Assembly (NCBI GenBank): GCA_009929845.1
Contig: RZZM01000002.1
Location: 1 to 51,564, forward strand
DNA: 51,564 bases
Reading direction: 5' to 3'
DNA from: Spartobacteria bacterium
Lineage (GTDB): Bacteria > Verrucomicrobiota > Kiritimatiellia > RZYC01
In this document: in pieces, positions 4,401 to 51,559 of the stretch
Layout: every line of letters starts with the position of its first letter
Numbering within the stretch: the stretch's first letter is position 1
The notes under the pieces: model-generated
What the model was told of the DNA's origin: nothing
What the model saw: the letters and a program-made list of their open reading frames with translations, nothing else
The model's database searches: none
Made by a program: the position numbers and the translations under genes

Positions 4401-5578
4401 GGACGAATCAACGAACCGGCGGCAACGGAACCATCTCGCAGGCCCTGCATTGGCACATCACGGATATTCCCCTGGGTGCCGGCAGCAACCTGCTGACAGT
4501 ATCCGGCCCCACCGCGGGCGGCATGACGACCAATGCCCGCGACCATGCCAGCGACGCGGCCTATTCAGACGGGTGGACCAGCGGCGACAACGGCGGGACC
4601 GGCTGGGGCGGCGGATGGAATCTCATCGGCAGTGAAAATGCCGGCTTCTTCATCGCCGATTCCGTTTCTCACCCGAATCTGAATATCACATCCCCGGCGT
4701 TCGGATTGTATGCCAACAGCGATGCCATGTCCGAAGCCATTCGGCCCCTGGTCACCCCATTGGTGTCGGGTCAGACGGTACAGGTATCCTTTGAGAACAA
4801 CTGGGTCACGGATTCCAAGAGTGTCGGCATGGCCCTGATGAATAACAGCAACAGCCTCTTCGAGTTTTATTTCTATGGCGGTGATGGCACCTATCGCATC
4901 ACCGACAGCACCGGTAACCGGGACACCCTGCTGCCATATACGGATAATGGGTTGGACCTCTCCTTCACCCTGACCGGCCCGACCACGTACTCCGTGGATG
5001 TCAGCGGCAGCAATTACACCGGGACCCTGGTCAGCCAGGCGGACCCGCACATACGACGCATCCGTTTCTGGAATTACAGCGCCGGCGCGGATACCGACTA
5101 TAATGCCTACTTCAACAACCTGCTGGTAACCAGTCAAAATACCGAAGACAAAACGAGCGACAGCCTGCTCATCAACTTCATTAATCCCGACAACTACATG
5201 CCGACGTGGTGGCAACTACAGCATTTCGGCTGTGAGACCTGCGCGGTCGGCCAGGCGGATTCGGACGGGGACGGGTTCCTCAACCAGGAAGAGTACTGGC
5301 TGGGCACCGACCCCACCAACCCGGTATCCACCTTTGTCATCAGCGAGGCCACCGGAACCAGTACGGATTATTACACCATCCGTTGGATTTCCATCGGAGG
5401 CAAGGCCTATGAAGTTCAGTATACGGATGAACTGACCGGACAACCGTTTCAAACCATCACGACAGTCAGCGAAAACGCCGTGCCCGACGGTGTGATGACC
5501 AACCGTTCTTTCCAGGACACCATCACCGCGCCACCGACCAATGGTTTCCGGGTCTATCGCGTGCAATTACGCCGCTGA
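1478..5578 (+). CDS. secreted multidomain glycoside hydrolase, GH57/GH119-like catalytic region plus two CBM25-like starch-binding modules, a LamG-like region, a TSP3-like Ca-binding motif and a C-terminal beta module
   Basis: The ORF is 1442-5578, and the ATG at 1478 is preceded by AAAGGAAAA. The signal peptide reads MKMKCLVFLLTIAIVFPICHSAMG. GH57-type motifs are present: FWHNHQP, FTYHHSLAAVLP, FFPTEMAFS and ATDGDNAWGG. Two tandem modules of about 95 aa end in NWSTSI and WDNNDSSDW, which is CBM25-like. The DSDGDGFLNQEEYWLGTDPTNP motif is also present. Confidence 0.8.
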   Translation: MKMKCLVFLLTIAIVFPICHSAMGNGNVYVSRFWHNHQPIYWPEWNSNGGQNSRIQYAWDSIVLKDGQTYGTGQGHPDNNLTDIFGNNDRVNSYQSGPRNSLANLDTAAGYAISYSGSLIDNVNNLGANGQLGYGSGWANGYREARGWNTPSGSTRMDMVGFTYHHSLAAVLPKSVLRKEIQTFKQVWWKAWGGNSDLSDHSKGFFPTEMAFSTEMLDVLVDEGYEWVIVASHHLSRTCPTYNNYADPEASFQIKSSPPNKADQLGPSPTTGWWFAEPNPGQAAWNVSPYAYQLHRTKYVDPETGTEKAMIVVPSDDVLSYKAGYSGAEVGMVSGNIAPYATDPDRPVIVLPATDGDNAWGGGNSSWFESTPSFFSGCQSAGYNVCAIQDMVNAKPPPADTYVHVENGAWIFPESAYGAPYYLKWIEPPLNADNLSLCYSNTMVDLETPGFALKFWSWAAVMTGANWVETAEQIWLGEGGSVEAWKIAQPYDNLQDGSWTSPNIVELAWHIYLGGLDSGFNYYGGLGNDDEVKPSLATRRAIEQVETYVNARLASDQTAPTIFRPQRFPWNPGGYTFGWFNRQPGVDENYLKKMPSHFYVWSHIYDVSGVTNVDLKVRVDNDGTNTLANNQNETYAGGADVGAWITIPMTMRELPDTREELNAAADNGQIDYFITPPYLADYYFAKIDDSNVSGFRGKLLDYYIEAQDGRGNTRKTDIQHVFVEDDGAVPGSSASFSSDPSDCAPITITYNAGGGALSGVSPVVMQISYDNGTNWSPHQMTNTASDTWSYAVNAPNDAPSAIVWFEDSGGTIQDSRGGLNWSTSIRDCDAPEGPGTVTFTNAPTCEPVIITYHPNAGVLAAAETIYAHIGFNQWMSMVDPDVAMSKVGANAWRYSIVPPAGATQLDVVFNDGESVWDNNDSSDWAYTVTGCDQGVVPPGITITNPGQESITLTSETAMVTLHGTAGADITGDLTWTNQRTGGNGTISQALHWHITDIPLGAGSNLLTVSGPTAGGMTTNARDHASDAAYSDGWTSGDNGGTGWGGGWNLIGSENAGFFIADSVSHPNLNITSPAFGLYANSDAMSEAIRPLVTPLVSGQTVQVSFENNWVTDSKSVGMALMNNSNSLFEFYFYGGDGTYRITDSTGNRDTLLPYTDNGLDLSFTLTGPTTYSVDVSGSNYTGTLVSQADPHIRRIRFWNYSAGADTDYNAYFNNLLVTSQNTEDKTSDSLLINFINPDNYMPTWWQLQHFGCETCAVGQADSDGDGFLNQEEYWLGTDPTNPVSTFVISEATGTSTDYYTIRWISIGGKAYEVQYTDELTGQPFQTITTVSENAVPDGVMTNRSFQDTITAPPTNGFRVYRVQLRR

Positions 5579-13615: not shown

Positions 13616-15073
13616 CTATTGTTTCGTGGTTTCGAGGGTCATGCCGACGTGACCGGCGATGGCTTCAATCCATCGCATTTCTTCGGAGGAGAAGGGGAGT
13701 TCGACGCGACGACCGACAAAATAGGCGCCGACGGCGCGTGTGCCAATGCAAATCGGGGCGACAGCGACAAATGAAAGCTTTAACTGTGTTATAAGGGCGG
13801 GATTGGTGATAATTGATCGTGATCCCACGGCGGCTTGCAGGGGTTTTTTAGCGGCCAGCGCCTCGGCAACCAGGGTATCGCCAGTCTTGAGACTGCATTT
13901 GAAGTCGTGTGAGTGGAGCATCACGCTCTGCCCTGCGTAGAGGCGTCCGAGCAACTGATCGCGTCCGGCATCAAGAAAGGCGGTGAAGACGCACACCGGC
14001 TGCAGGCAGCGGTAGATCGCCTCTTGTGCGATCATCAGGATATCGTTCAATCCGGCGTGCCGCTGTACCCCCATCATCAGTTCTGATAGAAAGTGTCCAA
14101 TCAAGGCGCCGGGTTCTTCCGCGCGGGGTTCCTCGCGCAGGACATTGCCTACGGTTACGCTGGTGGCAATTTCGGCGGTATCGACCTTTCCCCATGCGGC
14201 GATGCGCACCATCATTTCGATATCCTTGTAGGAGAGGTTGAAGAAGCGCTGCATATTGGAATCCGCGACACAGGCATCAATGATAAAGACTTCAAGGGAG
14301 ACGTCGTCATCCACAATTTCATGCATGGCTGCCTCGGCCTCCTGCATGTTTTTTTCGCCGGCGGGCAGATTGCCAAACAGCATATCGGCGATATGACTGC
14401 AAAGGCGGACAACGCGCTGGACAGCGCCGAACGTCCCGTCGGCGTCCCGCAGGGAGGTACGCAGGCTGTCGGGCAGGCGCCAGTAATCGGCAATGGCGTG
14501 GGTGATCTCGATATAGTTCATGCCGAAGACGCGACGGCATGCCTCGTTTGGCGAACAGGCATCCCGCTGCATCAGCTTTTCCATATCCTGGTATTGTTCT
14601 GGAAAACTGTTGGCCAGCAGCATGCGGGGAATCTGCTGGAGCAGGCCGCTGATAAAGGCCTCCTCCTGGTTGCCCTGCCCCGTTTTGCGCACCAGGGTCA
14701 TGGCCAGGGTTCCGGCGACATACGCGCAGGTGAAGAGGCGGTAGAGTTCCCGATTGCGCACGGTTTCGTATGACTGCCGGAAAATGGCCAGCCCGAGCGC
14801 CAGGGCCTGGATTTTTTCAAAGCCCAGGAAAATCACCGCGTTTGAAATCGTCTTGATCGGTTCTTTGGGGCGATAGGCGACGGAATTGGCGACGGAGAGG
14901 ACATTGGAGGTCAGGGCGGCGTCGCGCATGATGATGGCGGCCAAATCCGCCATGCGCGTTTCGTTGTCGTTTATCAGCGCGCACAGCGCACTGACATTGC
15001 GGTCCAGGGCCGGCAGATGCCCCTTGCGTTTCATCTCGGCGATCAGTTGCACTATATGCTTATCGACTGTCAT
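13616..15073 (-). CDS. HDOD domain protein with C-terminal GAF-like domain; HD dyad replaced by QQ
   Basis: The N-terminal HDOD pattern is LPALDRNVSALCALINDNETRMADLAAIIMRDAALTSNVLSVANS. The position equivalent to GLLHD(L/I)GK in the two other HDOD proteins reads GLLQQIPR (14633-14638). An AGGAG SD lies upstream of the ATG. Confidence 0.85.
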   Translation of the reverse strand: MTVDKHIVQLIAEMKRKGHLPALDRNVSALCALINDNETRMADLAAIIMRDAALTSNVLSVANSVAYRPKEPIKTISNAVIFLGFEKIQALALGLAIFRQSYETVRNRELYRLFTCAYVAGTLAMTLVRKTGQGNQEEAFISGLLQQIPRMLLANSFPEQYQDMEKLMQRDACSPNEACRRVFGMNYIEITHAIADYWRLPDSLRTSLRDADGTFGAVQRVVRLCSHIADMLFGNLPAGEKNMQEAEAAMHEIVDDDVSLEVFIIDACVADSNMQRFFNLSYKDIEMMVRIAAWGKVDTAEIATSVTVGNVLREEPRAEEPGALIGHFLSELMMGVQRHAGLNDILMIAQEAIYRCLQPVCVFTAFLDAGRDQLLGRLYAGQSVMLHSHDFKCSLKTGDTLVAEALAAKKPLQAAVGSRSIITNPALITQLKLSFVAVAPICIGTRAVGAYFVGRRVELPFSSEEMRWIEAIAGHVGMTLETTKQ

Positions 15074-15100: not shown

Positions 15101-15158
15101 TTGCCGCGCAGTATAGGGTACATTGCGCGGATGTACGAACTGTTTTTCCTTTCCTCAC
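15101..15158 (-). promoter_or_regulatory. conserved promoter/operator-like element (copy A), upstream of the HDOD-GAF gene
   Basis: About 50 of 58 positions are identical to 25623-25681. The minus strand contains AGTTCGTACATCCGCGCAATGTACCCTATACTGCGCGGCAA, which includes a GTACAT-N7-ATGTAC dyad and a TATACT -10-like box. Confidence 0.5.
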
Positions 15159-15163: not shown

Positions 15164-18100
15164 TTATCCGTCCCATTCAATCATAAAACAGTTGCATGCA
15201 TTTGGGATAACCTCTCCCCGCCACTTGCCCGAGGCGTAAAGTTTGGGGCCGGGGAGGCGTTCATCGAGGACATGACAAAAGGAAATGAACGTAACCGGGT
15301 CGCCGCTGATCCACGCGTGACCGTGGTCGCCAGTGATCAACCCCATCCAGAACCAACTGCCCCCCCAGGGGAAGAGCGACTGGATAAAGTCATTCACCTC
15401 GCGGCGGCGCACGGTGACGAGGTAGCCCCCCAGCTCTTCACACAGGCCACGGGCATCGTCCCACAGCATGGGGCGGGGAATATACAGATAGCGATGTCCG
15501 TCAAACTCCGCGGCGAGGTGCTTCAACGCCGCAACATCCCGGCGGCGCACGGCCAGCAGGACCTCGACCTCGCGGGCATACTCGGCAAATCTAAAATCGC
15601 GCGCCCAGGGTTTTCTGATCCATTCAAGTTCGTCCATAGTGATGGTATCGCATTCAAACGCGAAATGTCGCGGGGGATTTTTGATGAGGGGCCCAATACT
15701 GCGCAGTCGGTTGGCGCCGCACAAAAGGTAGTTCAGCGGCATCTCCTTGAGCGCGTCGAGTTTTTCGATACGATTGTTCTGGCAGCGCATGGTGCTTAGC
15801 GGCATATCGGCCAGCGGCTCAAGCGAGATAATGGCGTTGCTGGCGCAATTCAGGTTGATCAGGGGCATTCCGCGCAGGGGTTCGAGGTCCTCGATGGCAT
15901 TGCCGCTGCAGATCAGCTCTGTCAACGGCATGCCTTTCAGCGGCGAAAGGTCACTGATCCCGTTGCCGTCGCAAAACAGCAGGGTCATGGGCATGCCCCG
16001 CAACGGGTCCAGGCGGCGGGACCCGGTGCGCGCGCAGTTCAGCCAGATGAGCTGCATGCCCCGCAGTGGTTCAAGGCCGTCCTCCAGCGGATTCATGGCA
16101 CAATTCAACGTGCGTATCGGCATGCCCCGCAACGGCGCAAGGGTCGTGATACAACAGTGTTCACAAAGCAGCATGTGCAGCTCCATGCCCCGCAGCGGGT
16201 CCAGGCCGCGGATGGGATTACCGCTGCAATCAAGGATTCTCAATGGCATGCCGGCCAACGGCTCCAGAGTTGTGATGCGGTTGACGGTGCAATGCAGGGC
16301 GCTGATGGGCATACCGGCCAGCGGCTCGAGGCTGTCTATGTCCGCGCGCGGCAATTCAACCGTCAGCCCGTTGCGATCAACACGCAACCCGACCACCACC
16401 CCTGGCCAGGCGCGTGCCAGGCGGGCCTTCCACTCCGGCATCCGGTCCAGCAACTCCTTGCATTGTGTGGCCTGCTTCAACCCCACACGCCCCCGCTCGA
16501 TACGTTCGGCGTCCGGAAATGAATCCAGCGCATCCTGGAATAAATCAATCGCGGTTTCGTAGCGCCCTTTTTCGAGGTGCCGTTCGGCCACATCCAGGAT
16601 ATCGCTTTTCCAGGGCGTTCCCAGACTGTAGAGCCGCAGCCGGCGGTAGCGCGTGTCGGCCACCCATCCAAGTACCCCCACCGCGCCGCGGTGCGCCCCC
16701 ACCAGCGGTTCGTGGTCGATGACCGCAAAGAGTTCCCGGCCATTGACACTCATCCGCAATTCACGACCAATGCGATCGACACACACATGATAGGGCTGCG
16801 ACCTGACCAGTGGGGCGTCCGCCTGGCTCCACAGGCGCTTATCCAGGCGGGTCAGCACGTTGTAGGAGTTGGTGTAGGCGCCGTATTTGAAGGCGTAGCC
16901 GCTTACCGATACCGCCCAGGGGTCTTCCGAGCGCACAGCGCCCAGGAAACAACCGACATCATTCAGGTAGGACCCTTCCAGGTAACACTCAAACTCAATA
17001 CGCAGATCACCGGGCAAATCACGTTTGAACATTAAAACCTGCGGCTCGCCTCCCCAGACACGCAATTCGCCGTTACGGCGCTCGTGCTTGCCCCCCAGCA
17101 CGTCCCAGCGCGAGAACACTGCATCGTCTGAAAAATCCTCCTCCGCAATCAGATGCCAGATGATGCCGTTCTGATAGTCCTCGAGATGGCGCTGCATTTC
17201 CTTGACCAGGCTGAAGCGATGGGATGGTTCGTAGGCAAGCGCCTTCATGGCCAAATCAGAAAGATACGGAGGGATACGCCCGCCGGGGCAATGAGGCAGC
17301 GGAAGGGGATACTCCACCGCGACATCATCCGGGCGCCGCTGCCGGTCGGCCATGGGGGACGGACCGTTGAACGAGGCGGGGGAACGAATATCGCCATAGA
17401 GAGCCCTTCGCAGCAAATCCTTGAGATCATCCCCTTTTATGGGCGGTTCCAACGTCAGCATGCAATAGAGGATAGCGCCGAGCGCATAGATATCGGTACG
17501 TTCGTTGTACCCACGTCCGCCGGTGCAGATCAGTTCCGGCGCCAGGTAGCCGGGGGTGCCCATGATCGTGCCGCTGCCGGTCTTCACCCCCGTGCGCGTG
17601 TTGCCCAGCCCGACCAGTTCCACCTGCATGGTATCCTGCAGACAGCGCAGGACGGGAATATCCTGTGTGCCGGGTCGTTCGGCCCCGGGCGCCAGCGCGT
17701 CGATGCCCAGATACAAGGTCTGTTTGCGGAAGTGCTCGTGCAGGTCCTCCACATCGATGGCATCTATCGACCCCACGGCATGTTCCATCAGCTCGGACAA
17801 GACCGGTTCATCCTCCAAATGCTCAATCGGCTTGGCCAGCCCCCAGTCCAGAACCAGCACTTCCCCGTAGGAACCAATCATGATATTCGCCGGTTTCAAA
17901 TCGCAATGGGCCACGCCGCGCGAATGGGCAAAGGCCACGGCATCGCACACCTTCTGGAAAATCGTCAGGAGACGGCTGAGGGGAAATTCCCGCACCATCT
18001 CTTCATTGGCATCACGCAGACCAACCAGCACATCCGCCAGCGGAATGCCTTTCACATGCTTCATCGCATAGAAAAGATTGCCCTCCCGGTCCCGTGCCAA

Positions 18101-18379
18101 CTCATGAATCGGAACAATGTTCGGGTGCTCAAGTCCCGAGGTAATCCGCGCCTCGCCCTCAAAACGTTTCACGTCCGTCGGGTCCTTCGCCTTCTGGGTT
18201 TCCATGACCTTCAGCGCGACACTGCGCTCACATTTCAAGTCATGCGCCTCATACACCGCCCCCATCCCGCCGCGCGCCAGCAACCGCTCGATGACGTACT
18301 TTTCCCCACCTTCCACCCACAGGGGCGAGGCATCCGAGTACCTGTTTTCGTCTTCTTTTCGCGGTTCAGTATCAGCCAT
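15164..18379 (-). CDS. multidomain Ser/Thr protein kinase (Hanks type): kinase, ConA-like beta-sandwich, TPR-like helices, about 10 LRRs, C-type-lectin-like domain
   Basis: Kinase motifs are GGMGAVY, VALKVM, HCDLKPAN (17900-17908 encodes HCD), DWG and GTPGYLAPE. About ten repeats of L(E/D)PL(R/A)GMPLxxLxCxxNxIxx occupy aa about 665-900. The C-terminal CTLD pattern is ARGLCEELGGYLVTV...WFWMGL...CFMIEWDG. No signal peptide or TM segment is visible. Confidence 0.92.
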   Translation of the reverse strand: MADTEPRKEDENRYSDASPLWVEGGEKYVIERLLARGGMGAVYEAHDLKCERSVALKVMETQKAKDPTDVKRFEGEARITSGLEHPNIVPIHELARDREGNLFYAMKHVKGIPLADVLVGLRDANEEMVREFPLSRLLTIFQKVCDAVAFAHSRGVAHCDLKPANIMIGSYGEVLVLDWGLAKPIEHLEDEPVLSELMEHAVGSIDAIDVEDLHEHFRKQTLYLGIDALAPGAERPGTQDIPVLRCLQDTMQVELVGLGNTRTGVKTGSGTIMGTPGYLAPELICTGGRGYNERTDIYALGAILYCMLTLEPPIKGDDLKDLLRRALYGDIRSPASFNGPSPMADRQRRPDDVAVEYPLPLPHCPGGRIPPYLSDLAMKALAYEPSHRFSLVKEMQRHLEDYQNGIIWHLIAEEDFSDDAVFSRWDVLGGKHERRNGELRVWGGEPQVLMFKRDLPGDLRIEFECYLEGSYLNDVGCFLGAVRSEDPWAVSVSGYAFKYGAYTNSYNVLTRLDKRLWSQADAPLVRSQPYHVCVDRIGRELRMSVNGRELFAVIDHEPLVGAHRGAVGVLGWVADTRYRRLRLYSLGTPWKSDILDVAERHLEKGRYETAIDLFQDALDSFPDAERIERGRVGLKQATQCKELLDRMPEWKARLARAWPGVVVGLRVDRNGLTVELPRADIDSLEPLAGMPISALHCTVNRITTLEPLAGMPLRILDCSGNPIRGLDPLRGMELHMLLCEHCCITTLAPLRGMPIRTLNCAMNPLEDGLEPLRGMQLIWLNCARTGSRRLDPLRGMPMTLLFCDGNGISDLSPLKGMPLTELICSGNAIEDLEPLRGMPLINLNCASNAIISLEPLADMPLSTMRCQNNRIEKLDALKEMPLNYLLCGANRLRSIGPLIKNPPRHFAFECDTITMDELEWIRKPWARDFRFAEYAREVEVLLAVRRRDVAALKHLAAEFDGHRYLYIPRPMLWDDARGLCEELGGYLVTVRRREVNDFIQSLFPWGGSWFWMGLITGDHGHAWISGDPVTFISFCHVLDERLPGPKLYASGKWRGEVIPNACNCFMIEWDG

Positions 18380-18633: not shown

Positions 18634-21600
18634 TTATTCGCGCTGTACACTAATTTTGAAGTATTGTCGATCCAGCATATTGACTGGATTGGTGCAGCTG
18701 ATAACCGAGCCATCGCCCTGTACTTCATACACCACCGTGTCAGACCAGACACCAAACAGATTCGTCGAGCTGTATATGCGATAGAGGCGATCAGAGACCC
18801 CCAGCCAGTTCAGGACAACCGCATGATGGGCGCCCAGATGGCATCCTTCAATTTGGAAACTTGATGCCGCATTGTTTAATAACGTTCCCGCAATCCACTC
18901 CTCATAATCACTCTGTCCATCGCCATCGGTATCATTCAGGTTCGGATTGCCCCCATGGAGATACTCCTGCAGATCGGTCAGGTGATCATCATCCAGATCA
19001 TTCGTGCCCGTATGCGAAAAGGTTCCAAAATGGTACATCTCCCATGCGTCAGCCATCATATCAGCATCCGCATCGTTCGTTAATGTGCCATAAATACTAA
19101 ACTCCGCCAATGCCCATTCATCAGGATCAAAGCCGCTGTTGATCTGCAGTTTGACATATCGCGCGGTAGTGGTATTAAAGGAGAACAACTGGGGTGAAAG
19201 CGTTGGCAACAACTGATCTTTAACCAGCGGAGTAAACGCTATGCCATCCATGGAAGTAAGGATTGTAAAATCCTTGCTGAAATTGGTTTTCCCAGTTTCT
19301 ACTTCCCCATAATTCTGCAAAATCACATCAGACATGATGATGCCCATGTAATTCGAAAATGAATAGACAAATACCTGATTGGTAACGGGCGTCGCCTCGC
19401 TACGCCAGAAACTTATCGGATTTCCATCTGTTATATTCGCGGCAGCACATGTGTTTGTATCCTGAGAGGTAAACGACACCAAGGTACAGCCGTTAGCCGG
19501 AAGTAAGAGGTTCGCATTACCGAAAAGACCAAATTCAGTCAAATGATAGGCCATGCCTTTTACATAATTCTCCTCTGTGTACACCTCCGAATTCAATGCG
19601 CGCCTCCATCGGCCGGCATCCGCATCATACCAATGAATACCCAGTGTAGCCTCTGGCACCGTGGTACCATCCACAAATCCATCATTATCCGCGTCAGGAT
19701 ACGGCATTATTAATTCAAGTGGCTTGTCAAGCCTGGAAGAACCTTGCAGCGTAAACTGCCGATTTTCATTCACATTAATCCTGCATTCCGCGGAGCCATT
19801 TGCAGGGTTTGTATTCATCCCTGTCAGGATGACATGCATACTGGTATTGGACGGTACTGTTCCGGCCGGAATGAATACCTGTGTTCCATCATTGATTCCA
19901 ACAGAAATGGATTCGTCCTTGCTGAAGCGCACAGATTTGTTGCGCTTGTCATTGATGTTGGCCTCCAATATACGGCCCACCTCATCAGAAGTCGCGGAGG
20001 ACACGGTCACGGTATAAACGGGTGAAGTCGCCACTGTACCTGTTCCCACAAAGGCCACCGCGCGCAGGTTGTATTGCTCGCCATCCACAAGACCTGTAAC
20101 ATCCCATGTTGCCATGTAGCCACGAGGCTGCGGGTAAACAGGCGTACCCAACAGGGTCCATTCAGACTGGGAAACCTGTTTATACTCAAATTGGACATAC
20201 AACGTATTGTTGGCGGGCGCAACATGCCCGATAATAGATATCGAATCGCCCCACAGCATGCTGTTGGCTTTGGGCTTGGATATCCAGACCTTGTAGGTTT
20301 GCGCGGCATTTACCTTTACCTGTGTCGAGTCATCATCGGTCAATCCGTCATCATCAATAACCGTTACCCTGGGTGAATAGGTCCCCACTTGTGTATACAG
20401 ATAATGGCTGACATTGGTCTGGGTAACCGCATCCACTATACCATCGCCATCAAAATCCCACCGATATTCCTCGACGGTACCGTCATCGACAAAATAAGCG
20501 CAAAATTCAACATCCAAGGGCACATCCCCGGAATCAGGTTCCGCAAGCAGTTCGACAACAGGCGGAATGGCCACACAATCAACATTCAGCACCGCGGTAC
20601 AACTGTCCTGTACACCCATGCTGTCTGTCACACGCAATTTGACGAGGTAAACCCCATCGGCCCTGTAGACCCATGTAACCGAGCCAGAGGCAGAGAGCAT
20701 GTCATACACATTATCTCCGTCTACATCGAACTCATAAAGCGCTATCGTTCGATGTACTGCCGCTACCGACCCTGTACCGGAAATCAAAACGCTAAGTGGC
20801 GCTGTACCCGATGTCGGATCGAGCGTCAGTTGAGCAACGGGAGGACTTGACTCCCACACCTGAACAACGCCCGAAGCTGTATCCTGTTCGCCATAGGCAT
20901 CCGTTACCATGAGTTGAGGATAATATGTTCCCGCCTCCGGGTAGTCTGCGATTACGATGCCGGGTTGATCCACATAGATTTCAAACGTCCCATCGCCAAT
21001 CTTATCTATTTCACACTTAACAATATTTCCATCCGGATCGTATGTCCCGGAAAAATCCATTGTCACAGACAATGGGGCAACCCCATTGGTTGGCGTAATA
21101 TTCAAAACCGCCACAGGGGGTTGATTCAGATCAAAGTATACCGCAGGCACAGTATGAATCCCACATGGGATTGCAACTTCCACTGGTTCAGGGGATTCCC
21201 AACCAAACACATTACTGAACGCGATCTGATATACCCCTTCCGGGATATCTTCAATTAAAACACCACTGGCATACCAGTTCGTATCTGATGTGTTTTCAAC
21301 CCGCCACATCGCCCCGGCCGCATTAACCTCATCAGGTTGGATCCTGACCCTCAACCCTGTTGATGAGGGCGGAATAGCCTGTGCACACTGCTCATATATG
21401 GCATAAATCTCCCCAGGTGACAATGCCCGGTTATACATCCTTACTTCATCCAGGACACCAGCGAACTTGTTCTCCAAATGCTCGGAATTAATGCCGATCG
21501 TAACAAAAACCTCATTTATACTAATCGGCCCGGCAAAGGTATCTTCTTCACGCAAAAGGCATCCGTCCTGGTAATAGCGCATCGTCGCCCCATCCCATGT

Positions 21601-24540
21601 TGCGGCAAAATGCGACCAGGTTTCAGGGCACAGCACACCATTGTCTCTACTGCCACGCCAGACATACGGCGAACTGCTCAACAGACTACCAAATCCATTT
21701 GAATACACTCCAAACCAATACGATTCATGCGCAGAATTTTCTTTGGCGATAATTGGCGCATCGGCCTGTGGATTATCACAACGTACCAATGCGGTGAAGG
21801 TTAGCGCCTCACTGACCTGTAGTGACGGAGAACTCGGGATATAAACATATGATGGAGCATCCCCATCAAAGAATAACGAACCCTCACAGGGACCATTCGT
21901 CCATGTGCTGTCAAGCGCATTGCGCAACTGCCCATTATTGTCACAGGCACTCTGATCAATAATGTTACTGCCTCCGCCTTCTTCAAAGGTGTAATACAGG
22001 ACGAGTCCTTCAGGTAGATTTGTTGATTGCCGATACTGCCCGACATAGGCAGGAGATCCACCATCACAAGCAGGTACGGATACAACATACCCGACCGGAC
22101 TGTTCCATCCGGAAACAGGCTTGAATTCAAGGGTGTAATACCCCATGGGCAAGTCCGTATAGGCAAATCCGCTTTCATGCCAATTGGAGTCCATCAAACC
22201 GGCTACTTTCCACTGGGCGCCTTCCGCAATGACCTCCGGTGGACTCAACGTGCACTGCACCGATCCGCTGATGACAGGAAAATTACTGGCGCACATGTCA
22301 TACAATGCGCTGACCTGACCATCCGTCAACGCTGTTTTGTAAATTCGAACATCATCAACAACACCTTCAAATTTCATCTCCAGGTGCTCACTGTTGATTC
22401 CTATGGCCACAAAGCAGTCATTGACAGCAATGGGGCCCACAAAGTAGTCACTGGACGAAAGTTTGTGTCCGTTTTGATAGTATTGAACCGTCATTCCATC
22501 CCACGTGGCCGCGATATGCACCCACTGTTCAGGACAGATTTCGCCATGATCCCGATCACAAGTCCAACCTGTTCCTTTGTCAAGCAACGTGCCAAAATGC
22601 CCATGATACACGCCAAACCAATACGATTGATTAAAGAAATTGGCCTCCTTGGCAATGATCGGCGCATCCCGGTCGGGGTTGTCACAACGGACTAAGGCTG
22701 TAAATGATATTTGTTCCGTAACAGAGAGCGAAGCCGAGTTCGATACATACACGTACGCCGGATTGATACCATCAAAAAAGATTGCGCCATCAACGAGTCC
22801 ATTTGTCCAGTTTGCGCTTGTGGCATTCTGAAAGACGCCGTGGTTCCCATAGGTGCTGTGATCAAGAATAGTTGAATCCGGGCCTTCATCAAAGGTATAA
22901 TGCAGCACCAAATCAGTAGAAATCCCCGAAATCACGCTATATAAACCCGTCAAACAAACAGCCATGCCGCATTCTGTGTATGCCACAGACTGCGCGGCCG
23001 GTGTGTTCCACCCTGTCACAGAACTGAATTCAATGGTATACACACCACTGGCAAGATAATCAAGCGTGGCTCCACTTCCCCGCCATTCGAGAGGCTCAAG
23101 ATCGGCAACACGCCAATATGCATCGGCACGTAAACCCTCTGGCATAATCACACCACTGAGCCCCTGATCCGGCAACGGAATATTCCCGGCACACGCTGTG
23201 GCTACTGCATCAATCTCATCGGGTGTAAGAGCCCGGTTGTAGACCCGGATTTCATCAAGCAGCCCCACAAACTTGTTTTCCAGATGCTCAGAATTAATGC
23301 CAATAGCCGCAAAGGCATCGCTCTCGCAAAGGGGACCGGTAAACTCGTCGGTTGCATTTAGCGCTTGACCGTTCTGATAATATCTGATTACCGCCCCGTC
23401 CCATGTCGCAGAAAGCTGCATCCACTGACCCTCGCAGATGACACCATGGTCACGACCTCCCTGCCAACGGTATGACTGCCGACTGAGTAACGAGCCAAAA
23501 CGATTTGAATATACACCAAACCAGTAAGACTCTTTCGATGAGCGTTCTTTCGCTATGATAGGTGCATCCGAATCAGGATTATCGCATCGCATGACGGCGT
23601 GGAACGTCGCCGAAGTTGTCAGCCGCATTGAATCACTGTTTGGTACGTGTACATATGTGGGTGTTGTTCCATCAAAATAGACGCACCCACCGATAGCATT
23701 TGTAACCCATGTTGCCAATGTTTCATTGACCAGCAGACCGTCGTTTCCATAAGAACTCCGGTCGATTACGTTGCTGCCCAAACCTTCCTCGAACGTATAG
23801 TGCAACACCAAATCAACGTCAGGAACCAAATGAATAGCGCCAGCTTCGTATATGGCTTCTATTTCACTGCTACTTAACGAGTGGTCATATATCCGCAGTT
23901 CATCTATGACCCCTTTGAATTTGGCACTCAGATGCCCAGAATTAACACCAAGGCCAACAAAGATGGTCGTTGTATCCAAAGGCCCTGTGAACACGTTACT
24001 TCCTATTAGTAGGCCATCCTGGTAATAGCAAACCGCGTTGCCATCCCAGGTGCCCGCCAAGTGAGTCCACTCCCCTTCGCAAATCACCCCATGATCCTCC
24101 GTACAAGACCAACCAGACCCTGCATCCAGATACATCCCAAAATGCCCATATTTAGCGCCAAACCAGTACGATTGCTCCCCGAAGCCATTTTCTTTGGCGA
24201 TGATCGACGCATCGCGGCCCACGTCATCGCAACGGATAAACACACTGAACGTCAATCCGGTACTCAACTGTAATGAAGGATCATCCGGTATCCGCACGTA
24301 GGTCAGGTTCTCACCATCCAGATACAATGCGCCACCTAACGGACCATTCAGCCAATTACACGGCTGCTCATTGACCAGCAGACCGTCGTTTCCATAAGAA
24401 CTCCGGTCGATTACGTTGCTGCCCAAACCTTCCTCGAACGTATAGTGCAACACCAACTCAGCCCTTGAAGAGGACAACAGACACCACAACAAAACAAGTA
24501 GATAACTTGCAAAGAGACGCCCACCCATTTTTATGTTCAT
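18634..24540 (-). CDS. giant secreted surface protein: 4 LamG domains, 3 interspersed beta domains, 3 PKD domains, an F5/8 type C (discoidin) domain, TSP3-like motifs and the C-terminal beta module
   Basis: The signal peptide reads MNIKMGGRLFASYLLVLLWCLLSSSRA. The LamG signature LVLHYTFEEG...NDG...LDEIR(I/V)Y occurs four times. PKD-like segments include PPVAVLNITPTNGVAPLSV... and WDFDGDGIVD. A discoidin-like segment is ITDGNPISFWRSE...YVKLQINSG. The protein also contains NDTDGDGQSDYEEW. Confidence 0.92.
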   Translation of the reverse strand: MNIKMGGRLFASYLLVLLWCLLSSSRAELVLHYTFEEGLGSNVIDRSSYGNDGLLVNEQPCNWLNGPLGGALYLDGENLTYVRIPDDPSLQLSTGLTFSVFIRCDDVGRDASIIAKENGFGEQSYWFGAKYGHFGMYLDAGSGWSCTEDHGVICEGEWTHLAGTWDGNAVCYYQDGLLIGSNVFTGPLDTTTIFVGLGVNSGHLSAKFKGVIDELRIYDHSLSSSEIEAIYEAGAIHLVPDVDLVLHYTFEEGLGSNVIDRSSYGNDGLLVNETLATWVTNAIGGCVYFDGTTPTYVHVPNSDSMRLTTSATFHAVMRCDNPDSDAPIIAKERSSKESYWFGVYSNRFGSLLSRQSYRWQGGRDHGVICEGQWMQLSATWDGAVIRYYQNGQALNATDEFTGPLCESDAFAAIGINSEHLENKFVGLLDEIRVYNRALTPDEIDAVATACAGNIPLPDQGLSGVIMPEGLRADAYWRVADLEPLEWRGSGATLDYLASGVYTIEFSSVTGWNTPAAQSVAYTECGMAVCLTGLYSVISGISTDLVLHYTFDEGPDSTILDHSTYGNHGVFQNATSANWTNGLVDGAIFFDGINPAYVYVSNSASLSVTEQISFTALVRCDNPDRDAPIIAKEANFFNQSYWFGVYHGHFGTLLDKGTGWTCDRDHGEICPEQWVHIAATWDGMTVQYYQNGHKLSSSDYFVGPIAVNDCFVAIGINSEHLEMKFEGVVDDVRIYKTALTDGQVSALYDMCASNFPVISGSVQCTLSPPEVIAEGAQWKVAGLMDSNWHESGFAYTDLPMGYYTLEFKPVSGWNSPVGYVVSVPACDGGSPAYVGQYRQSTNLPEGLVLYYTFEEGGGSNIIDQSACDNNGQLRNALDSTWTNGPCEGSLFFDGDAPSYVYIPSSPSLQVSEALTFTALVRCDNPQADAPIIAKENSAHESYWFGVYSNGFGSLLSSSPYVWRGSRDNGVLCPETWSHFAATWDGATMRYYQDGCLLREEDTFAGPISINEVFVTIGINSEHLENKFAGVLDEVRMYNRALSPGEIYAIYEQCAQAIPPSSTGLRVRIQPDEVNAAGAMWRVENTSDTNWYASGVLIEDIPEGVYQIAFSNVFGWESPEPVEVAIPCGIHTVPAVYFDLNQPPVAVLNITPTNGVAPLSVTMDFSGTYDPDGNIVKCEIDKIGDGTFEIYVDQPGIVIADYPEAGTYYPQLMVTDAYGEQDTASGVVQVWESSPPVAQLTLDPTSGTAPLSVLISGTGSVAAVHRTIALYEFDVDGDNVYDMLSASGSVTWVYRADGVYLVKLRVTDSMGVQDSCTAVLNVDCVAIPPVVELLAEPDSGDVPLDVEFCAYFVDDGTVEEYRWDFDGDGIVDAVTQTNVSHYLYTQVGTYSPRVTVIDDDGLTDDDSTQVKVNAAQTYKVWISKPKANSMLWGDSISIIGHVAPANNTLYVQFEYKQVSQSEWTLLGTPVYPQPRGYMATWDVTGLVDGEQYNLRAVAFVGTGTVATSPVYTVTVSSATSDEVGRILEANINDKRNKSVRFSKDESISVGINDGTQVFIPAGTVPSNTSMHVILTGMNTNPANGSAECRINVNENRQFTLQGSSRLDKPLELIMPYPDADNDGFVDGTTVPEATLGIHWYDADAGRWRRALNSEVYTEENYVKGMAYHLTEFGLFGNANLLLPANGCTLVSFTSQDTNTCAAANITDGNPISFWRSEATPVTNQVFVYSFSNYMGIIMSDVILQNYGEVETGKTNFSKDFTILTSMDGIAFTPLVKDQLLPTLSPQLFSFNTTTARYVKLQINSGFDPDEWALAEFSIYGTLTNDADADMMADAWEMYHFGTFSHTGTNDLDDDHLTDLQEYLHGGNPNLNDTDGDGQSDYEEWIAGTLLNNAASSFQIEGCHLGAHHAVVLNWLGVSDRLYRIYSSTNLFGVWSDTVVYEVQGDGSVISCTNPVNMLDRQYFKISVQRE
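23723..23811. repeat. 89-bp perfect direct repeat, copy 1 (inside the LamG protein gene)
   Basis: This segment is identical base for base to 24368-24456. On the minus strand it encodes LVLHYTFEEGLGSNVIDRSSYGNDGLLVNE at the start of LamG domain 2. Confidence 0.95.
24368..24456. repeat. 89-bp perfect direct repeat, copy 2 (inside the LamG protein gene)
   Basis: This segment is identical to 23723-23811, offset by 645 bp (215 codons). It encodes the same 30 residues at the start of LamG domain 1. Confidence 0.95.
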
Positions 24541-24794: not shown

Positions 24795-25622
24795 CTATAT
24801 TTTTGCGCCGCAGTATTTGCAGTATACTGCGTCCGGGTCATGTCCTTCCGCGCCGCAATCCGGACAGGCCTGCGTCGACAGCTCTTCCTGCTGACCAGCC
24901 ATTTCAAAGGTAACGATACCGGTAGGCACGGCAATGATACTGTATCCGAGAATCATAATCACGGACGCCAACGTCCGCCCCAGGGGGGTCTGTGGGGAAA
25001 TATCGCCATAGCCCACGGTGGTGAGGGTGACAATGGCCCAGTAGATACTGTGCGGGATGCTGTCGAAGCCGTTTTCGCGTCCCTCAATCATGTACATGAA
25101 TGATCCAAGCAGGACAACCAGGATAAGCAAGGTTAAAAGGAATACGGCGATTTTCCGGCGGCTGGCCCTGAGCGCCTGCGTGAGGAATCGGACCTCCCCG
25201 ACATAGGTCACGAGTTTAAGGACACGGAAGATGCGCAACACGCGCAAGATGCGGATCACCAGCAGGAACTGGCTCCCAGGCAGGAAAGGACTGATATAGG
25301 TGGGGACAACGCAAATCAGGTCAACCACGCCATAGAAACTGCGGGCATAACGCCACGGGCGCCGGACACACCATAGCCGCAAGATATATTCAGCGGTGAA
25401 AAGAAGGGTGAAGCCCCATTCAAATCCATATAGCACGCCCCCCCAGCGCTGCTCAATGGCGGCCACACTGTCAAGCATGACAACAAGCACACTCAACAGG
25501 ATACAAATGATCAGGGCCACATCAAACGCCTTCCCCGCGGGGGTGTCCGCCTCGAAAATTATCTCCTGCATGCGCGCCTGCAAGGAACGTTCGTCTATCA
25601 GCTCTGTTACCTGATCATTCAT
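24795..25622 (-). CDS. voltage-gated-type 6TM potassium channel with C-terminal zinc-ribbon
   Basis: The K+ selectivity filter is TLTTVGYGD and the S4-like segment is LLVIRILRVLRIFRVLKL. Six hydrophobic segments are visible. The C-terminus reads CPDCGAEGHDPDAVYCKYCGAKI. Confidence 0.9.
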   Translation of the reverse strand: MNDQVTELIDERSLQARMQEIIFEADTPAGKAFDVALIICILLSVLVVMLDSVAAIEQRWGGVLYGFEWGFTLLFTAEYILRLWCVRRPWRYARSFYGVVDLICVVPTYISPFLPGSQFLLVIRILRVLRIFRVLKLVTYVGEVRFLTQALRASRRKIAVFLLTLLILVVLLGSFMYMIEGRENGFDSIPHSIYWAIVTLTTVGYGDISPQTPLGRTLASVIMILGYSIIAVPTGIVTFEMAGQQEELSTQACPDCGAEGHDPDAVYCKYCGAKI

Positions 25623-25681
25623 TGCCGTGCAGTATAGGGTACAGTACGCAGATGTACGAACAGTTTTTTGGGTTTCCTCAC
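25623..25681 (-). promoter_or_regulatory. conserved promoter/operator-like element (copy B), abutting the Kv channel start codon
   Basis: This is a near-copy of 15101-15158. On the minus strand, TATACT is followed by only 8 nt (GCACGGCA) before the ATG at 25622, and there is no SD. A CGTACTGTACC motif lies immediately upstream of CTATACTG. Confidence 0.5.
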
Positions 25682-40519: not shown

Positions 40520-40531
40520 TTTTTTATCATC

Positions 40532-41892: not shown

Positions 41893-41904
41893 GAGCAGGT
41901 ACAC

Positions 41905-42306: not shown

Positions 42307-42308
42307 TC

Positions 42309-43794
<1,486 letters not shown>

Positions 43795-43806
43795 TGGAGA
43801 GACACT

Positions 43807-45587: not shown

Positions 45588-48500
45588 TCACGCATCCCAT
45601 TTCACCATAAAACAATTATAGGCATCCGGTATATCCTCGCTGCACCACCCGCCACTGTAGACCTTGGGGCCGGGTTTACGCGCCTGGAAATCATCCGTAA
45701 AACCAAAATAATCAAGCGGCTCCCCATTGTACCAGTGGATCCCCTCTTCCGTGCTGAGCAATCCCATCCAGAACCAACTTCCATAAGGGAAAAGTTGCTG
45801 AATAAAGGCATCCTCCTCCTGCGAATGTATGGTCAGCAAATGCCCACCCACCTGCTCGCAGAAATCCCGCGCGCCCGTCCATGACAAAAACTTCGGGACA
45901 AACAGGTACTTCTTGCCGTTGAGCGTGGACGCTTGTTTCTTGAGCGCCTTGTGATTGCCCGCGCGAATTGCCAGCAATGTCTCGATATATTTCACCTGTC
46001 GTTCAAACCTGAAATCGCGCGACCAGGCCTGCTGCATCCACTCCAGTTCCTTGCCCGGGAGGGTATCGCTTTCGAAGAAGAATACATCCGGCGGGCGCTG
46101 GATAAAGGCGCCGATGGTCGTGAAGCGGTTGGCGCCGCAGGTCAGGGAGGCCAACGGCATCGACATCAGGGGGTCCAGCGACGAAATCAAATTGTGTTGG
46201 CAACTGAACATGTTCAGCAGCATACCCCGCAACGGCTCCAGGCTGGCGATTTGATTGTCGGAACAAAACAGGGAGGTAAGCTGCATCCCGCGCAGGGGCG
46301 TCAATGCCTCGATACAATTTCCGCCGCAGTGCATCATGTTCAGCGGCATGCCGGACAGGGGCGAGAGGTCCTCAATCCGGTTGCCCCCGCAATACAGCGA
46401 CGTCAGCGGCATCCCTTTGAGCGGACGCAGATCGGATAGATTCGCGCCCCAGCAACTCAGGAACGTCAGCTCCATGCCGGCCAGCGGTTCCAGCCCGTCG
46501 GAAAGCGAAGGATTGCCGCCGCAATTCATCAGCGTCAGGGGCATCCCCGCCACCGGCGCGAGCGATGCGATCCGGCAGCTCTCGCAAAACAACTGGTTCA
46601 GGCGCATACCGGAAAGGGGGTCCAGCGATGTAATGGGATTGCCGCTGCAATTCAGCGCCACGAGCGGCATGCCGCGCAGCGGTTCGAGACTTTTAATCCC
46701 GTTGTTCGAGCAATGCAGCGCGGTGATCGGCATACCTTCGAGCGGACGCAAATCGGCGATTTCATTGTTGGCGATATCGAGGGAGAGGCCCGTATTTTCC
46801 AGTTGCAGATTGACGCGGGCGCCCGGCCACGCCTGTTCGAGGCGGGCCCGCCACAGGGGGAGGTTCTGGCGCAGATTCTCCCTGTGCCAGGCGGCCTCGT
46901 ATCCCAGGCGCGCGCGTTCGCGGCGTTCGGGATCGGGGAACGACACCTCGATCTCCTCAAACAGGCCCATGGCCACGATGTATCGCCCCTTCTGCATCTG
47001 ACGTTCCGCCATTTCGAGGATATCGCATTCCCAGGGCGTGCCCAGACTGTAGATTTTTATCCGGTCGTAATAGGTATCCGCCAGCCATCCGAACACCCCC
47101 ACCGCGGTGCGGTCGGCCCCGCTCAAGGCGTCCGCGTCGACCAGGGAAAAAATCTCTTCGTCGTTCACCTCCATCCGCAACCGGCATCCGACCCGTTCGA
47201 CGACAACATGGTACATCTCGCCACGCTGCAACGGAGAGGCGGACCGGCTCCAGATTTTCTGGTCCCCGCGCATCAGGACATTGAGCGAATTGTCATACCC
47301 GCCATAAATGAAGGCGTACCCGCCCGTCGGCAGCGGACGCCCGCCATCCGGGGGCACCGCGCTGAGAAAACAGCCGATGGTGTTGAGGTAAACGCCCTCC
47401 TGGTGACAGTCGAATTCGATACGCACATCCCCGGCGATATCGGCCTTGAACATGAGCATCTGGGGTTCGCCGCCATACATGTACAGCTCGTTGTCAACCA
47501 GGTTGTACTCGCCGCCGATAATATCCCATCGGCGCAAGGTTTCGGGATTGGAAAAGTCTTCATCGATAATCAACTGCCAGATTTCGCCCTCCTGATAGGC
47601 CTCAACGGCAAGCTGCAGGGTCGGCACCGTCTGGTAGCGGTCTTCTGGGTCTGTCGCCATAGCGATCATCACGATATCCGACAGGGCCGATGGAATGCGC
47701 TCCCCGGGACAATGCACAAACCGCGGCGGGTCATCAGCCTCTTCCCTGAGAGGGGTGTGGTTATAGTCCTGGGGCGGCTTGAAATCACCCTGGATAATCC
47801 GCCGCAGAATGGTGTGGATATCCTTACCCTTAACGGAGGAACACAGGGTCAGGATGCTGTAGAGGATGGCGCCCAGCGAATAGACATCACTCCTGAAATC
47901 CACCGCGTCGGTATCCGCGCGCGCCTGTTCCGGGGCCATGAACCCGGGCGTGCCCATCACGCGCCCGCTCATGGTCTTCAGGGAGGCGCCGACTTTGTCT
48001 TCGCGCAGGGACATGACCTTGGTATCGAGCTGCAGGCACAGTTCGCTTTGCTCCGTGGGGGCCCGCGCCCCCTCCCAGCCCTGCCCCATGACCTTGGCCA
48101 GGCCCCAGTCCATAACGAGCACCTCACCGAAATCACCGATCATGATGTTATCGGGCTTGAGGTCCCGGTGAACCACGTTTTTGGAATGCGCGAAGGCGAC
48201 CGCGTCGCAGGCCTTCTGAAAGATATTCAGCAGACGGCTGAGGGGATACTGTTCGATGATCTCCGGCTTCTGCATCCGCAGCCCCACCAGGATTTCCGTC
48301 AGGGTCATCCCGTTGACCAGTTTCATGGTGTAATAGATATGGTCGGCAGTATCGAGCCCCACCTCGTAGACCGGCACGATATTGGGGTGCTCGAGCTGCG
48401 CGGTGATCTGGGCCTCTTCGATAAACCGGAGCAGGTCTTCCCGCTCACGGGGCTCGAAGCCCGTCAGGACCTTCATGGCCACCGTGCGGCGGCAGTTCAG

Positions 48501-48758
48501 ATCGCGCGCCTGATAGACGATCCCCATGCCGCCTTCGGCGAGGATATCCCCGATCTCATAGCGCTGCCCCCCCTGCACCCGCAGGATATTATGGACGGTG
48601 TCATTGGCGTGCGACTCCAGCTCAATACTCTGCAACCCTTGCTTCGCAAGGTATTCAGTCATGGTTCGAGAGGATTTATCGATGCCTGTTGACGTTGGAT
48701 CATGCAGATCAATGGTTTTACTTTTACGTATCTTGCGCGCACTCACAATGCTTGCCAC
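45588..48758 (-). CDS. multidomain Ser/Thr protein kinase, paralog of 15164-18379 (kinase, ConA-like, TPR-like, LRR, C-type-lectin-like)
   Basis: Kinase motifs are GGMGIVY, VAMKVL, HRDLKPDN (48162-48170 encodes HRD), DWG and GTPGFMAPE. It has the same LRR series (LEPLRGMPLVALNCSGNPITS...) and CTLD tail (ARDFCEQVGGHLLTI...WFWMGL...CFMVKWDA) as kinase 1. The start is either a GTG at 48758, 3 nt after the HEAT gene stop, or the ATG at 48662. Confidence 0.92.
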   Translation of the reverse strand: MASIVSARKIRKSKTIDLHDPTSTGIDKSSRTMTEYLAKQGLQSIELESHANDTVHNILRVQGGQRYEIGDILAEGGMGIVYQARDLNCRRTVAMKVLTGFEPREREDLLRFIEEAQITAQLEHPNIVPVYEVGLDTADHIYYTMKLVNGMTLTEILVGLRMQKPEIIEQYPLSRLLNIFQKACDAVAFAHSKNVVHRDLKPDNIMIGDFGEVLVMDWGLAKVMGQGWEGARAPTEQSELCLQLDTKVMSLREDKVGASLKTMSGRVMGTPGFMAPEQARADTDAVDFRSDVYSLGAILYSILTLCSSVKGKDIHTILRRIIQGDFKPPQDYNHTPLREEADDPPRFVHCPGERIPSALSDIVMIAMATDPEDRYQTVPTLQLAVEAYQEGEIWQLIIDEDFSNPETLRRWDIIGGEYNLVDNELYMYGGEPQMLMFKADIAGDVRIEFDCHQEGVYLNTIGCFLSAVPPDGGRPLPTGGYAFIYGGYDNSLNVLMRGDQKIWSRSASPLQRGEMYHVVVERVGCRLRMEVNDEEIFSLVDADALSGADRTAVGVFGWLADTYYDRIKIYSLGTPWECDILEMAERQMQKGRYIVAMGLFEEIEVSFPDPERRERARLGYEAAWHRENLRQNLPLWRARLEQAWPGARVNLQLENTGLSLDIANNEIADLRPLEGMPITALHCSNNGIKSLEPLRGMPLVALNCSGNPITSLDPLSGMRLNQLFCESCRIASLAPVAGMPLTLMNCGGNPSLSDGLEPLAGMELTFLSCWGANLSDLRPLKGMPLTSLYCGGNRIEDLSPLSGMPLNMMHCGGNCIEALTPLRGMQLTSLFCSDNQIASLEPLRGMLLNMFSCQHNLISSLDPLMSMPLASLTCGANRFTTIGAFIQRPPDVFFFESDTLPGKELEWMQQAWSRDFRFERQVKYIETLLAIRAGNHKALKKQASTLNGKKYLFVPKFLSWTGARDFCEQVGGHLLTIHSQEEDAFIQQLFPYGSWFWMGLLSTEEGIHWYNGEPLDYFGFTDDFQARKPGPKVYSGGWCSEDIPDAYNCFMVKWDA

Positions 48759-51496: not shown

Positions 51497-51559
51497 ATCT
51501 GGAGGGCGGCTACTCCGTAGAGCCCGATGCACCGCAGACGCCTTGGATGAGATTGGGCA
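51497..51559. repeat. 63-bp perfect direct repeat, copy 2 (the window ends 5 nt later)
   Basis: The segment is identical to 51376-51438, with starts 121 bp apart. Confidence 0.95.

Follow-up and report, generated by a model that had tools for sequence, protein, structure and literature searches.

In this study, we analysed a stretch of 51,564 nucleotides (hereafter, the window) of contig RZZM01000002.1 from a Spartobacteria bacterium of the Kiritimatiellia (assembly GCA_009929845.1), and found that its gene at 15164..18379 on the minus strand encodes a serine/threonine kinase of the Hanks superfamily with 1071 amino acids (aa). The kinase domain is joined to a tail of about 670 aa, which contains a ConA-like β-sandwich, a leucine-rich repeat (LRR) solenoid, and a C-type-lectin-like domain (CTLD). 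On its sequence, the protein belongs, as one of many paralogs, to a lineage-specific family whose architecture is fixed, and this family is real and widespread in an understudied lineage. It is most likely a soluble kinase that would bind, through its tail, a partner specific to each paralog. The composite model that we favour comprises a competent soluble kinase, an active site held by a DWG motif, and a tail docking such a partner; we estimate its probability at roughly 0.55. As yet, there is no evidence that the family uses an unusual mechanism. The features of the gene and its paralog in the window are as follows.

15164..18379 (-): whole gene, soluble multidomain serine/threonine kinase, 1071 aa (list of open reading frames (ORFs); Pfam Pkinase, LRR_4, and Lectin_C; AlphaFold2 model)
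17171..18328 (-): Hanks-type kinase domain, aa 18-403 (Pkinase 129.8 bits; PknB by sequence and fold)
17900..17908 (-): catalytic loop H158-C159-D160, lacking the Arg of HRD (non-RD) in this protein (codons CAT TGC GAT)
17840..17848 (-): D178-W179-G180 replacing DFG (codons GAC TGG GGG)
17582..17824 (-): disordered variable insert in the activation segment, aa 186-266 (PknB alignment; AlphaFold2 model; family lengths)
16616..17167 (-): ConA-like, DUF1080-related β-sandwich, aa 405-588 (PF06439 in relatives; domain model; Foldseek)
16409..16600 (-): three-helix linker, weakly TPR-like, aa 594-657 (AlphaFold2 helices 594-603, 607-619, and 624-657)
15659..16390 (-): LRR solenoid, aa 664-907, ten repeats and capping strands (register; DNA periodicity; LRR_4; structure matches)
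15515..15637 (-): helical bundle between LRR and CTLD, aa 915-955 (AlphaFold2 helices 915-927, 929-946, and 949-955)
15167..15511 (-): CTLD, aa 957-1071 (Lectin_C; family profile against solved CTLDs; invariant residues)
45588..48758 (-): second family member with Pkinase, LRR_4, and Lectin_C, carrying HRD and DWG (Pfam; 48% full-length identity)

Architecture and family of the kinase

The ORF begins at the first start codon past an in-frame stop; hence, it hides no N-terminal extension. AAGGAA is located approximately 11 nt 5' of its ATG. The N-terminus of the protein is charged (MADTEPRKEDENRY...), and its most hydrophobic 19-residue window has a Kyte-Doolittle mean of 1.2, compared with the customary cut-off of 1.6 over 19 residues for a transmembrane helix. 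Therefore, we concluded that the protein has neither a transmembrane helix nor a signal peptide; it has no sorting motif either. A soluble protein of 1071 aa had been proposed in an earlier note made from the sequence alone, and the ORF, hydropathy, and N-terminus all agreed with it.

Three domains exceeded their Pfam cut-offs in the profile check recommended by that note: Pkinase (PF00069, 129.8 bits versus 31.7), LRR_4 (52.3 bits versus 27), and Lectin_C (PF00059, 29.6 bits versus 22.6). The full-length AlphaFold2 model, calculated from an alignment of 88 family sequences, had a mean pLDDT (predicted local distance difference test) of 85.6 and a pTM (predicted TM-score) of 0.65. It resolved six modules: the kinase (18-403), the β-sandwich (407-587), three helices (594-657), the LRR solenoid (664-907), a helical bundle (915-955), and an α/β domain corresponding to the CTLD (957-1070). 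The order is thus Hanks kinase, ConA-like jelly roll, helices, ten LRRs with a ladder of cysteines, helices, and CTLD. Pfam, the modelled modules, and the fold matches upheld the predicted domain order and the joining of a kinase to three binding-type folds (ConA-like, LRR, and CTLD), and it seems reasonable to regard the protein as a putative intracellular sensor kinase. A Foldseek search with the full-length model returned kinase domains only and no multidomain analogue.

The β-sandwich of this protein had no Pfam match at E <= 1, and no significant hit came from comparing its sequence profile with the PDB; its assignment came from relatives and from fold comparison, the only route to solved structures that succeeded. 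PF06439 (DUF1080 / 3-keto-disaccharide hydrolase) matched 20 of 27 family members, with a best value of 9.3e-8, and is precomputed for ~10 of 120 relatives. A separate model of the domain (pLDDT 92) matched BT3469 best (1.1e-8), and further ConA-like matches were the L-type lectins ERGIC-53, VIP36, and Emp47p, as well as CBM66 and YesU; TM-scores over these matches were 0.6-0.74. A ConA-like fold was thereby supported, and the resemblance to DUF1080 noted earlier was seen by profile in relatives of the query. The "TPR-like helices" fared less well: three helices are present at 594-657 in the AlphaFold2 model, but TPR matches at 595-627 were sub-threshold in Pfam (TPR_14, E = 0.015). The helical bundle at 915-955, which the earlier note did not mention, was modelled with pLDDT >90 and contains the conserved motifs ELEW and WSRDFR.

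InlJ-type LRRs, CTLDs, and ConA-like domains typically occur in extracellular proteins, and the tail might therefore be that of an adhesin-like surface protein exported by a non-classical route. We regard this as hardly credible. Besides the absence of a signal peptide, transmembrane helix, or sorting motif, only 11 of 120 relatives have a 19-residue window >=1.6, and the top-scoring windows listed fall inside folded domains. Moreover, an ATP-dependent kinase makes little sense outside the cell, and the disulfide cysteines of the CTLD are not conserved.

A whole-protein search identified >120 full-length relatives with 42-65% identity and the same Pfam set. Because eukaryotic multi-CTLD proteins dominated a profile search made with the C-terminal region, the family was counted with the tail alone (aa 405-1071), which found 789 sequence clusters at E <= 1e-30. 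Among the 120 best-scoring matches of this search, every one of at least ~980 aa carries the kinase, and the few kinase-less matches are fragments from 2-4 kb contigs; hence, the tail is dedicated to this kinase as its partner. Conservation is similar in all folded modules (majority-residue fraction 0.57-0.72). The named source organisms are metagenome-assembled genomes (MAGs) of Kiritimatiellia, Lentisphaerota, and Verrucomicrobiota. A pattern scan of species-representative genomes yielded 14 loci, all in such MAGs, together with one 31%-identical locus in Planctomycetota. Therefore, the domain order, which the earlier note had suggested looking for in other genomes, does recur. The relatives are named "protein kinase", "serine/threonine protein kinase/LRR protein", or "hypothetical protein". 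None of the curated NCBIfam families fits the protein; the best one was chlamydial PknD, with a score below its cut-off, and we found no description of the kinase/ConA-like/LRR/CTLD architecture or of the family in the literature; a 2005 survey mentions a single LRR-kinase, in Pseudomonas aeruginosa. The architecture accordingly still counts as uncharacterised, as had been supposed.

The second member of the family in the window is called publicly as a protein of 1024 aa (P0274), and its true start is thus probably downstream of the GTG at 48758. Tandem copies occur elsewhere: three head to tail in locus L019, and two each in L020, L005, L008, and L016. The neighbourhood, whose conservation the earlier note had proposed to examine, proved not to be conserved; the neighbours differ between the query and a 65%-identical relative, and likewise between other paralogs. 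All-against-all clustering of the flanking ORFs of 19 loci revealed no conserved partner, but only shadow ORFs, other kinases, and one 291-aa protein specific to a sub-lineage.

Catalytic core, HxD residue, and DWG motif

The best solved relative of the kinase domain was PknB of Mycobacterium tuberculosis (~1e-29), and the modelled fold agreed with it at TM-scores of 0.84-0.89. In the alignment, the HCD of the query pairs with HRD and its DWG pairs with DFG; both replacements, noticed earlier, were confirmed at the codon level. The query retains the Gly-rich loop (G37/G40), the VAIK lysine (K57), the αC glutamate (E76), the HxD aspartate (D160), the catalytic-loop asparagine (N165), the DxG aspartate (D178), and P281-E282 at the APE position. 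G37, G40, K57, E76, H158, D160, K162, N165, D178, and G180 are invariant in 88/88 aligned members, as are P281, E282, D296, and R388. Since all catalytic residues are invariant, the family is predicted to consist of catalytically competent kinases, not pseudokinases. A scaffold role, in which an inactive HCD/DWG kinase serves as a binding platform only, could be argued from the deviations of HRD and DFG from the consensus and from the large insert in the activation segment. However, it is very improbable given that K57, E76, D160, K162, N165, and D178 are present and invariant in the family, and that DWG is compatible with high activity in CK2α (PMC5374413).

The two deviating motifs behave differently across the family. 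DWG is invariant (118/118 and 88/88 members). The middle residue of HxD in the 88 aligned members is R in 67, C in 15, H in 4, Q in 1, and N in 1, and its distribution requires at least 10 changes on a similarity tree. The cysteine of the query is shared with its closest relative (P0002) only; the paralog in the window has HRD, with the codon CGG at the position where the query has TGC. The C, H, and Q replacements are each one transition away from CGN arginine codons. Thus, loss of the arginine looks like a scattered, tolerated substitution and no hallmark of the family. The earlier note had taken the non-RD loop as a link to pattern-recognition receptor kinases; with R in 67 of 88 members, at least 10 changes, and HRD in the paralog of the window, this analogy is weak.

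In the model that we favour, the invariant Trp of DWG would stabilise the DFG-in state, by analogy with CK2α, and the classical DFG-flip switch would not be used. The HRD arginine, which normally couples the activation-loop phosphate to the catalytic loop, might therefore be dispensable, and this could in turn explain its repeated loss (R to C in the query). Control and specificity would then shift to the C-terminal tail.

The activation segment may offer a further regulatory handle through its disordered insert together with Thr267 and Ser269. These two residues align with T171 and T173 of PknB and are mostly retained in the family. The preceding residues 186-266 (~80 residues) have no counterpart in PknB, and aa 188-263 were modelled with pLDDT <50, i.e., as disordered. 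The insert is 83 aa long in the query and 21-85 aa across the family, and it is the least conserved region of the protein, with the highest entropy. Another segment absent from PknB, a low-confidence insert in the C-lobe, contains the motif H363-C364-P365 (17285-17293 (-)) within the consensus LPHCPxGxIP; H363 is invariant, and C364 and P365 are each kept in >=90% of the 88 members.

Leucine-rich repeats and C-type-lectin-like domain

The LRR solenoid consists of ten repeats starting at aa 684, 705, 726, 747, 769, 790, 811, 832, 853, and 874, each forming one strand in the AlphaFold2 model. The earlier note was correct in describing ten repeats with an invariant Cys, which occupies repeat position 14 in 10/10; the period, however, is 21 aa with one repeat of 22, not 22-23 aa. 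The coding DNA shows a 63-nt periodicity in agreement with the 21-aa repeat. Among solved structures, the region matched the Chlorobium Roco LRR best (4.7e-24); it also matched Listeria internalin J (InlJ; 3bz5, 2.4e-19), and the NCBIfam model internalin_J matched at 1.9e-11. A 21-residue "cysteine ladder" subtype of LRR is attributed to Bublitz et al. 2008 in PMC9525666. As the Cys lies at the core framework position (LxxLxC) and the region matches InlJ, the repeats can be assigned to this known InlJ-type subtype without a special redox feature; special chemistry of the LRR cysteines is not supported for the same reason.

We next compared the repeats across the family, taking repeat positions 10, 11, 13, 15, 16, and 18 as the strand, i.e., concave, positions. 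Framework positions are conserved and concave positions are highly variable. Identities to the query were as follows.

Concave positions: closest relative (P0002) 62%, paralog in the window 25%, family mean 24%
Convex and other exposed positions: closest relative 35%, paralog in the window 30%, family mean 29%
Framework positions: closest relative 88%, paralog in the window 85%, family mean 77%

The 12 most similar pairs in the family (86-90% identical overall) had concave identities of 87-97% in 11 cases and 73% in one. The concave face thus behaves like a putative binding surface that is paralog-specific and conserved within a lineage. In the favoured model, it would dock a protein specific to each paralog, either a substrate or a regulator, and the ConA-like domain and CTLD, conserved family-wide, would form either a ligand site common to the family or an interface within the molecule.

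Several points weigh against this model. The reasoning about DWG draws on a eukaryotic kinase by analogy. Any LRR would be expected to vary at its concave face, and the contrast between ortholog and paralog at the concave face of the query rests on one close pair. Finally, genomic context points to no partner, since neighbourhoods are not shared even with the 65%-identical relative.

The combination of LRR and kinase, the non-RD loop of the query copy, and the diverged paralogs in tandem arrays also recall innate immunity: the LRR and CTLD might detect foreign (e.g., phage) molecules in the cytoplasm, upon which a non-RD kinase would trigger defence. The kinase domain indeed scores against defence-kinase models such as PD-T4-6, mad6, and PglW. 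Nevertheless, we consider this quite improbable. The PADLOC and NCBIfam defence matches span the generic kinase core only; in PADLOC, the best stretches begin at aa 11-35 and end by aa 211, except for MkoA (28-333), and none leaves the kinase domain. Membership in a defence system was therefore rejected as a conclusion from these matches. Most members of the family are RD kinases, no effector domain is present, and the neighbours are housekeeping and signalling genes, not defence islands; the HDOD-GAF gene adjacent to the kinase gave no PADLOC match. Furthermore, the concave identity of 87-97% in 11 of the 12 close pairs shows no arms-race signature.

A broader version of the sensor idea regards the tandem LRR-CTLD kinases as a bacterial counterpart of receptor-kinase clusters, in which each concave face is tuned to a different intracellular cue and the set together replaces hybrid two-component and extracytoplasmic-function (ECF) sigma factor systems. 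The cues may be signals derived from glycans, foreign proteins, or specific client proteins, and the systems replaced may be those running polysaccharide-utilisation or stress programmes in other glycan degraders. We judge this unlikely.

The CTLD was supported by Lectin_C and by a family profile, which matched single-domain CTLD structures (agglucetin, 9e-15; the carbohydrate-recognition domain of Mincle, 1e-12) and also thousands of eukaryotic CTLD proteins. W973, G984, W1009, W1011, G1013, W1023, and W1069 are invariant, and the WIGL-type motif reads WFWMGL in the query. The pair of EPN/QPD-type and WND-type motifs was found in 0/119 family members, and the EPN/QPD-type motif alone was likewise found in none. 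The domain is thus a genuine CTLD, but not a canonical Ca/sugar-binding lectin; the fold proposed in the earlier note stands and the status of a lectin does not. Similarly, of the landmarks it listed, WFWMGL and the cysteines Cys1/Cys4 (C980 and C1063) are present in the query, but the Cys pair is not conserved: several relatives have S, A, G, P, or T instead, and no conserved C2-C3 disulfide pair was seen in the family alignment. This would fit a cytoplasmic, disulfide-free domain in a reducing compartment.

The lectin-like folds raise another possibility, namely a cytosolic sensor of glycans or metabolites, in which the ConA-like domain and/or the CTLD would bind imported oligosaccharides or their derivatives and each paralog would switch on polysaccharide-utilisation genes. 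Two of the three tail domains have carbohydrate-binding folds, many paralogs would suit many substrates, and both the host lineage and the window are rich in glycan-related genes (a GH57 protein with carbohydrate-binding modules (CBMs), a giant LamG/PKD/F5-8C protein, and glycosyltransferases); cellulase and sulfate-activation genes also lie near the array in L019. On the other hand, the sugar-binding motif pair is missing from all 119 CTLDs, the ConA-like domain and CTLD are conserved and not diversified among paralogs, and the surface that does vary is the LRR, which is usually protein-binding. In addition, no carbohydrate-active enzyme or transporter is a conserved neighbour. A glycan sensor is therefore possible but rather unlikely, and docking of a paralog-specific protein by the LRR remains the reading that we prefer.

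Genomic surroundings, significance, and comparison with known systems

The gene directly downstream of the kinase encodes an HDOD and GAF protein (13616-15073 (-)); an HDOD neighbour is not conserved beside relatives of the kinase. The window contains three HDOD-domain proteins in total, the other two (41008-41892 (+) and 43807-44682 (+)) belonging to a CheR-CheD-HDOD-CheX-CheB-HDOD cluster (39647-44682) that ends ~900 bp from the second kinase paralog. A 47-nt element occurs at 15101-15147 and 25622-25668; the copies are 89% identical and contain the nested palindromes GTACAT..ATGTAC and CCGCGCA..TGCGCGG. On the minus strand, each copy immediately precedes a gene, namely the HDOD-GAF gene (start 15073) and an ion-channel gene (start 25622), respectively; the element could be a shared operator, promoter, or attenuator. 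Its position just upstream of the HDOD-GAF gene suggests that this gene and the kinase do not simply share one transcript.

Immediately upstream of the kinase, 18634-24540 (-) encodes a giant, secreted-looking protein of 1968 aa with four Laminin_G_3 modules, PKD domains, and an F5/8 type C domain. This gene contains a 93-nt internal repeat of 99% identity (23723-23815 and 24368-24460), and its GC content is ~0.49, compared with 0.55-0.61 over most of the window. A HEAT-repeat protein of 346 aa (48762-49802 (-)) stops 4 nt short of the ORF start of the second kinase and may be co-transcribed with it; it has weak PADLOC matches to HEAT-containing candidate defence proteins. At 1442-5578 (+), a 1378-aa protein matches GH57, CBM53/CBM25, and bacterial TSP3 repeats; this protein and several glycosyltransferases encoded elsewhere in the window are consistent with a host whose lifestyle is centred on glycans. 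The end of the window carries a perfect 63-nt direct repeat (51376-51438 and 51497-51559, spaced 121 nt), which may mark the beginning of an array of repeats or may have arisen in assembly.

In one sub-lineage, a tandem pair of family kinases is followed by the conserved protein of ~291 aa and then by a fusion of REC and kinase of ~445-490 aa (L005 8012-9487, L008 8188-9516, and L016 8103-9437, all (+)). The former has 291 aa in L008 and L009 and no Pfam match, and the arrangement hints at cross-talk with two-component signalling. In a Planctomycetota MAG, three different multidomain kinases are arranged head to tail (L017 10-8799 (+)): a distant family member (35% identity), a 1234-aa protein with TPR and LRR, and one with a zinc ribbon and TPR.

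Kiritimatiellia and related groups are anaerobes that degrade glycans and occur in abundance. With ~800 clusters of soluble kinases carrying one fixed tail, the family is plausibly a major signalling layer in these bacteria. The tail is unusual in that it places a true animal-type CTLD and an LRR of the InlJ type in the cytoplasm, and identification of its ligand would establish a new type of sensor module in bacterial Hanks kinases. The invariant DWG and the repeated loss of the HRD arginine also make the family a natural experiment on kinase regulation.

The targets with a C-type-lectin fold that are diversified by diversity-generating retroelements (DGRs) include kinase-fused ones in cyanobacteria. 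Like these, the query ends in such a fold and is an intracellular signalling protein of several domains; its CTLD, however, is conserved and of the Lectin_C rather than the FGE-sulfatase type. Diversification of the CTLD by a DGR was rejected because the domain is not hypervariable and 15164-15500 has no repeat elsewhere in the window. No reverse transcriptase was found among the 31 window ORFs scanned by Pfam; the other ORFs of the window were not scanned.

Chlamydial PknD (NCBIfam NF009651) was the top-scoring curated kinase family, and both proteins come from the Planctomycetes-Verrucomicrobia-Chlamydiae (PVC) group. The score of the query (215.7 bits) is nevertheless far below the 839-bit cut-off, and PknD is membrane-bound (PMC5177608), whereas the query has no transmembrane helix. 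InlJ (3bz5) shares the 21-residue LRR with Cys at the core framework position, but it is a secreted wall-anchored adhesin and the LRR of the query sits in a cytoplasmic kinase; against the InlJ family (NF033187), the query reached 43 bits versus a cut-off of 1700 and has no signal peptide. The LRR of Chlorobium tepidum Roco (5il7/6hlu) gave the best structure match, and LRRK2 also combines LRR and kinase. Unlike Roco and LRRK2, the query has neither the Roc GTPase nor COR according to Pfam and the model, and the order is reversed, with the kinase first. Plant non-RD LRR receptor kinases (e.g., EFR) and IRAKs resemble the query in LRR, kinase, and non-RD loop (PMC8463890). They differ in that the query has no transmembrane helix or extracellular LRR, its family is mostly RD, and its kinase is of the bacterial PknB-like type, so that homology exists at the domain level only. 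Defining features of PknD, internalins, Roco/LRRK2, plant LRR receptor-like kinases, and Ca-dependent C-type lectins were tested and are absent, and membership in each of these groups was rejected.

With CK2α, the query shares DWG in place of DFG; in CK2α, this motif disfavours DFG-out and accompanies constitutive activity (PMC5374413). There is no specific sequence kinship beyond the kinase fold, and CK2α has no sensor tail; the likeness is thus an analogy of mechanism only. Among the closest known systems are the PknB-like Hanks kinases (PknB and PknA of M. tuberculosis and StkP of Streptococcus pneumoniae), with which the query shares a homologous kinase domain and all catalytic residues. 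In contrast to these kinases, it is soluble, without a transmembrane helix, PASTA, or other extracellular sensor, and it has DWG, HCD, the 83-aa disordered insert, and a 670-aa cytoplasmic tail of ConA-like, LRR, and CTLD modules.

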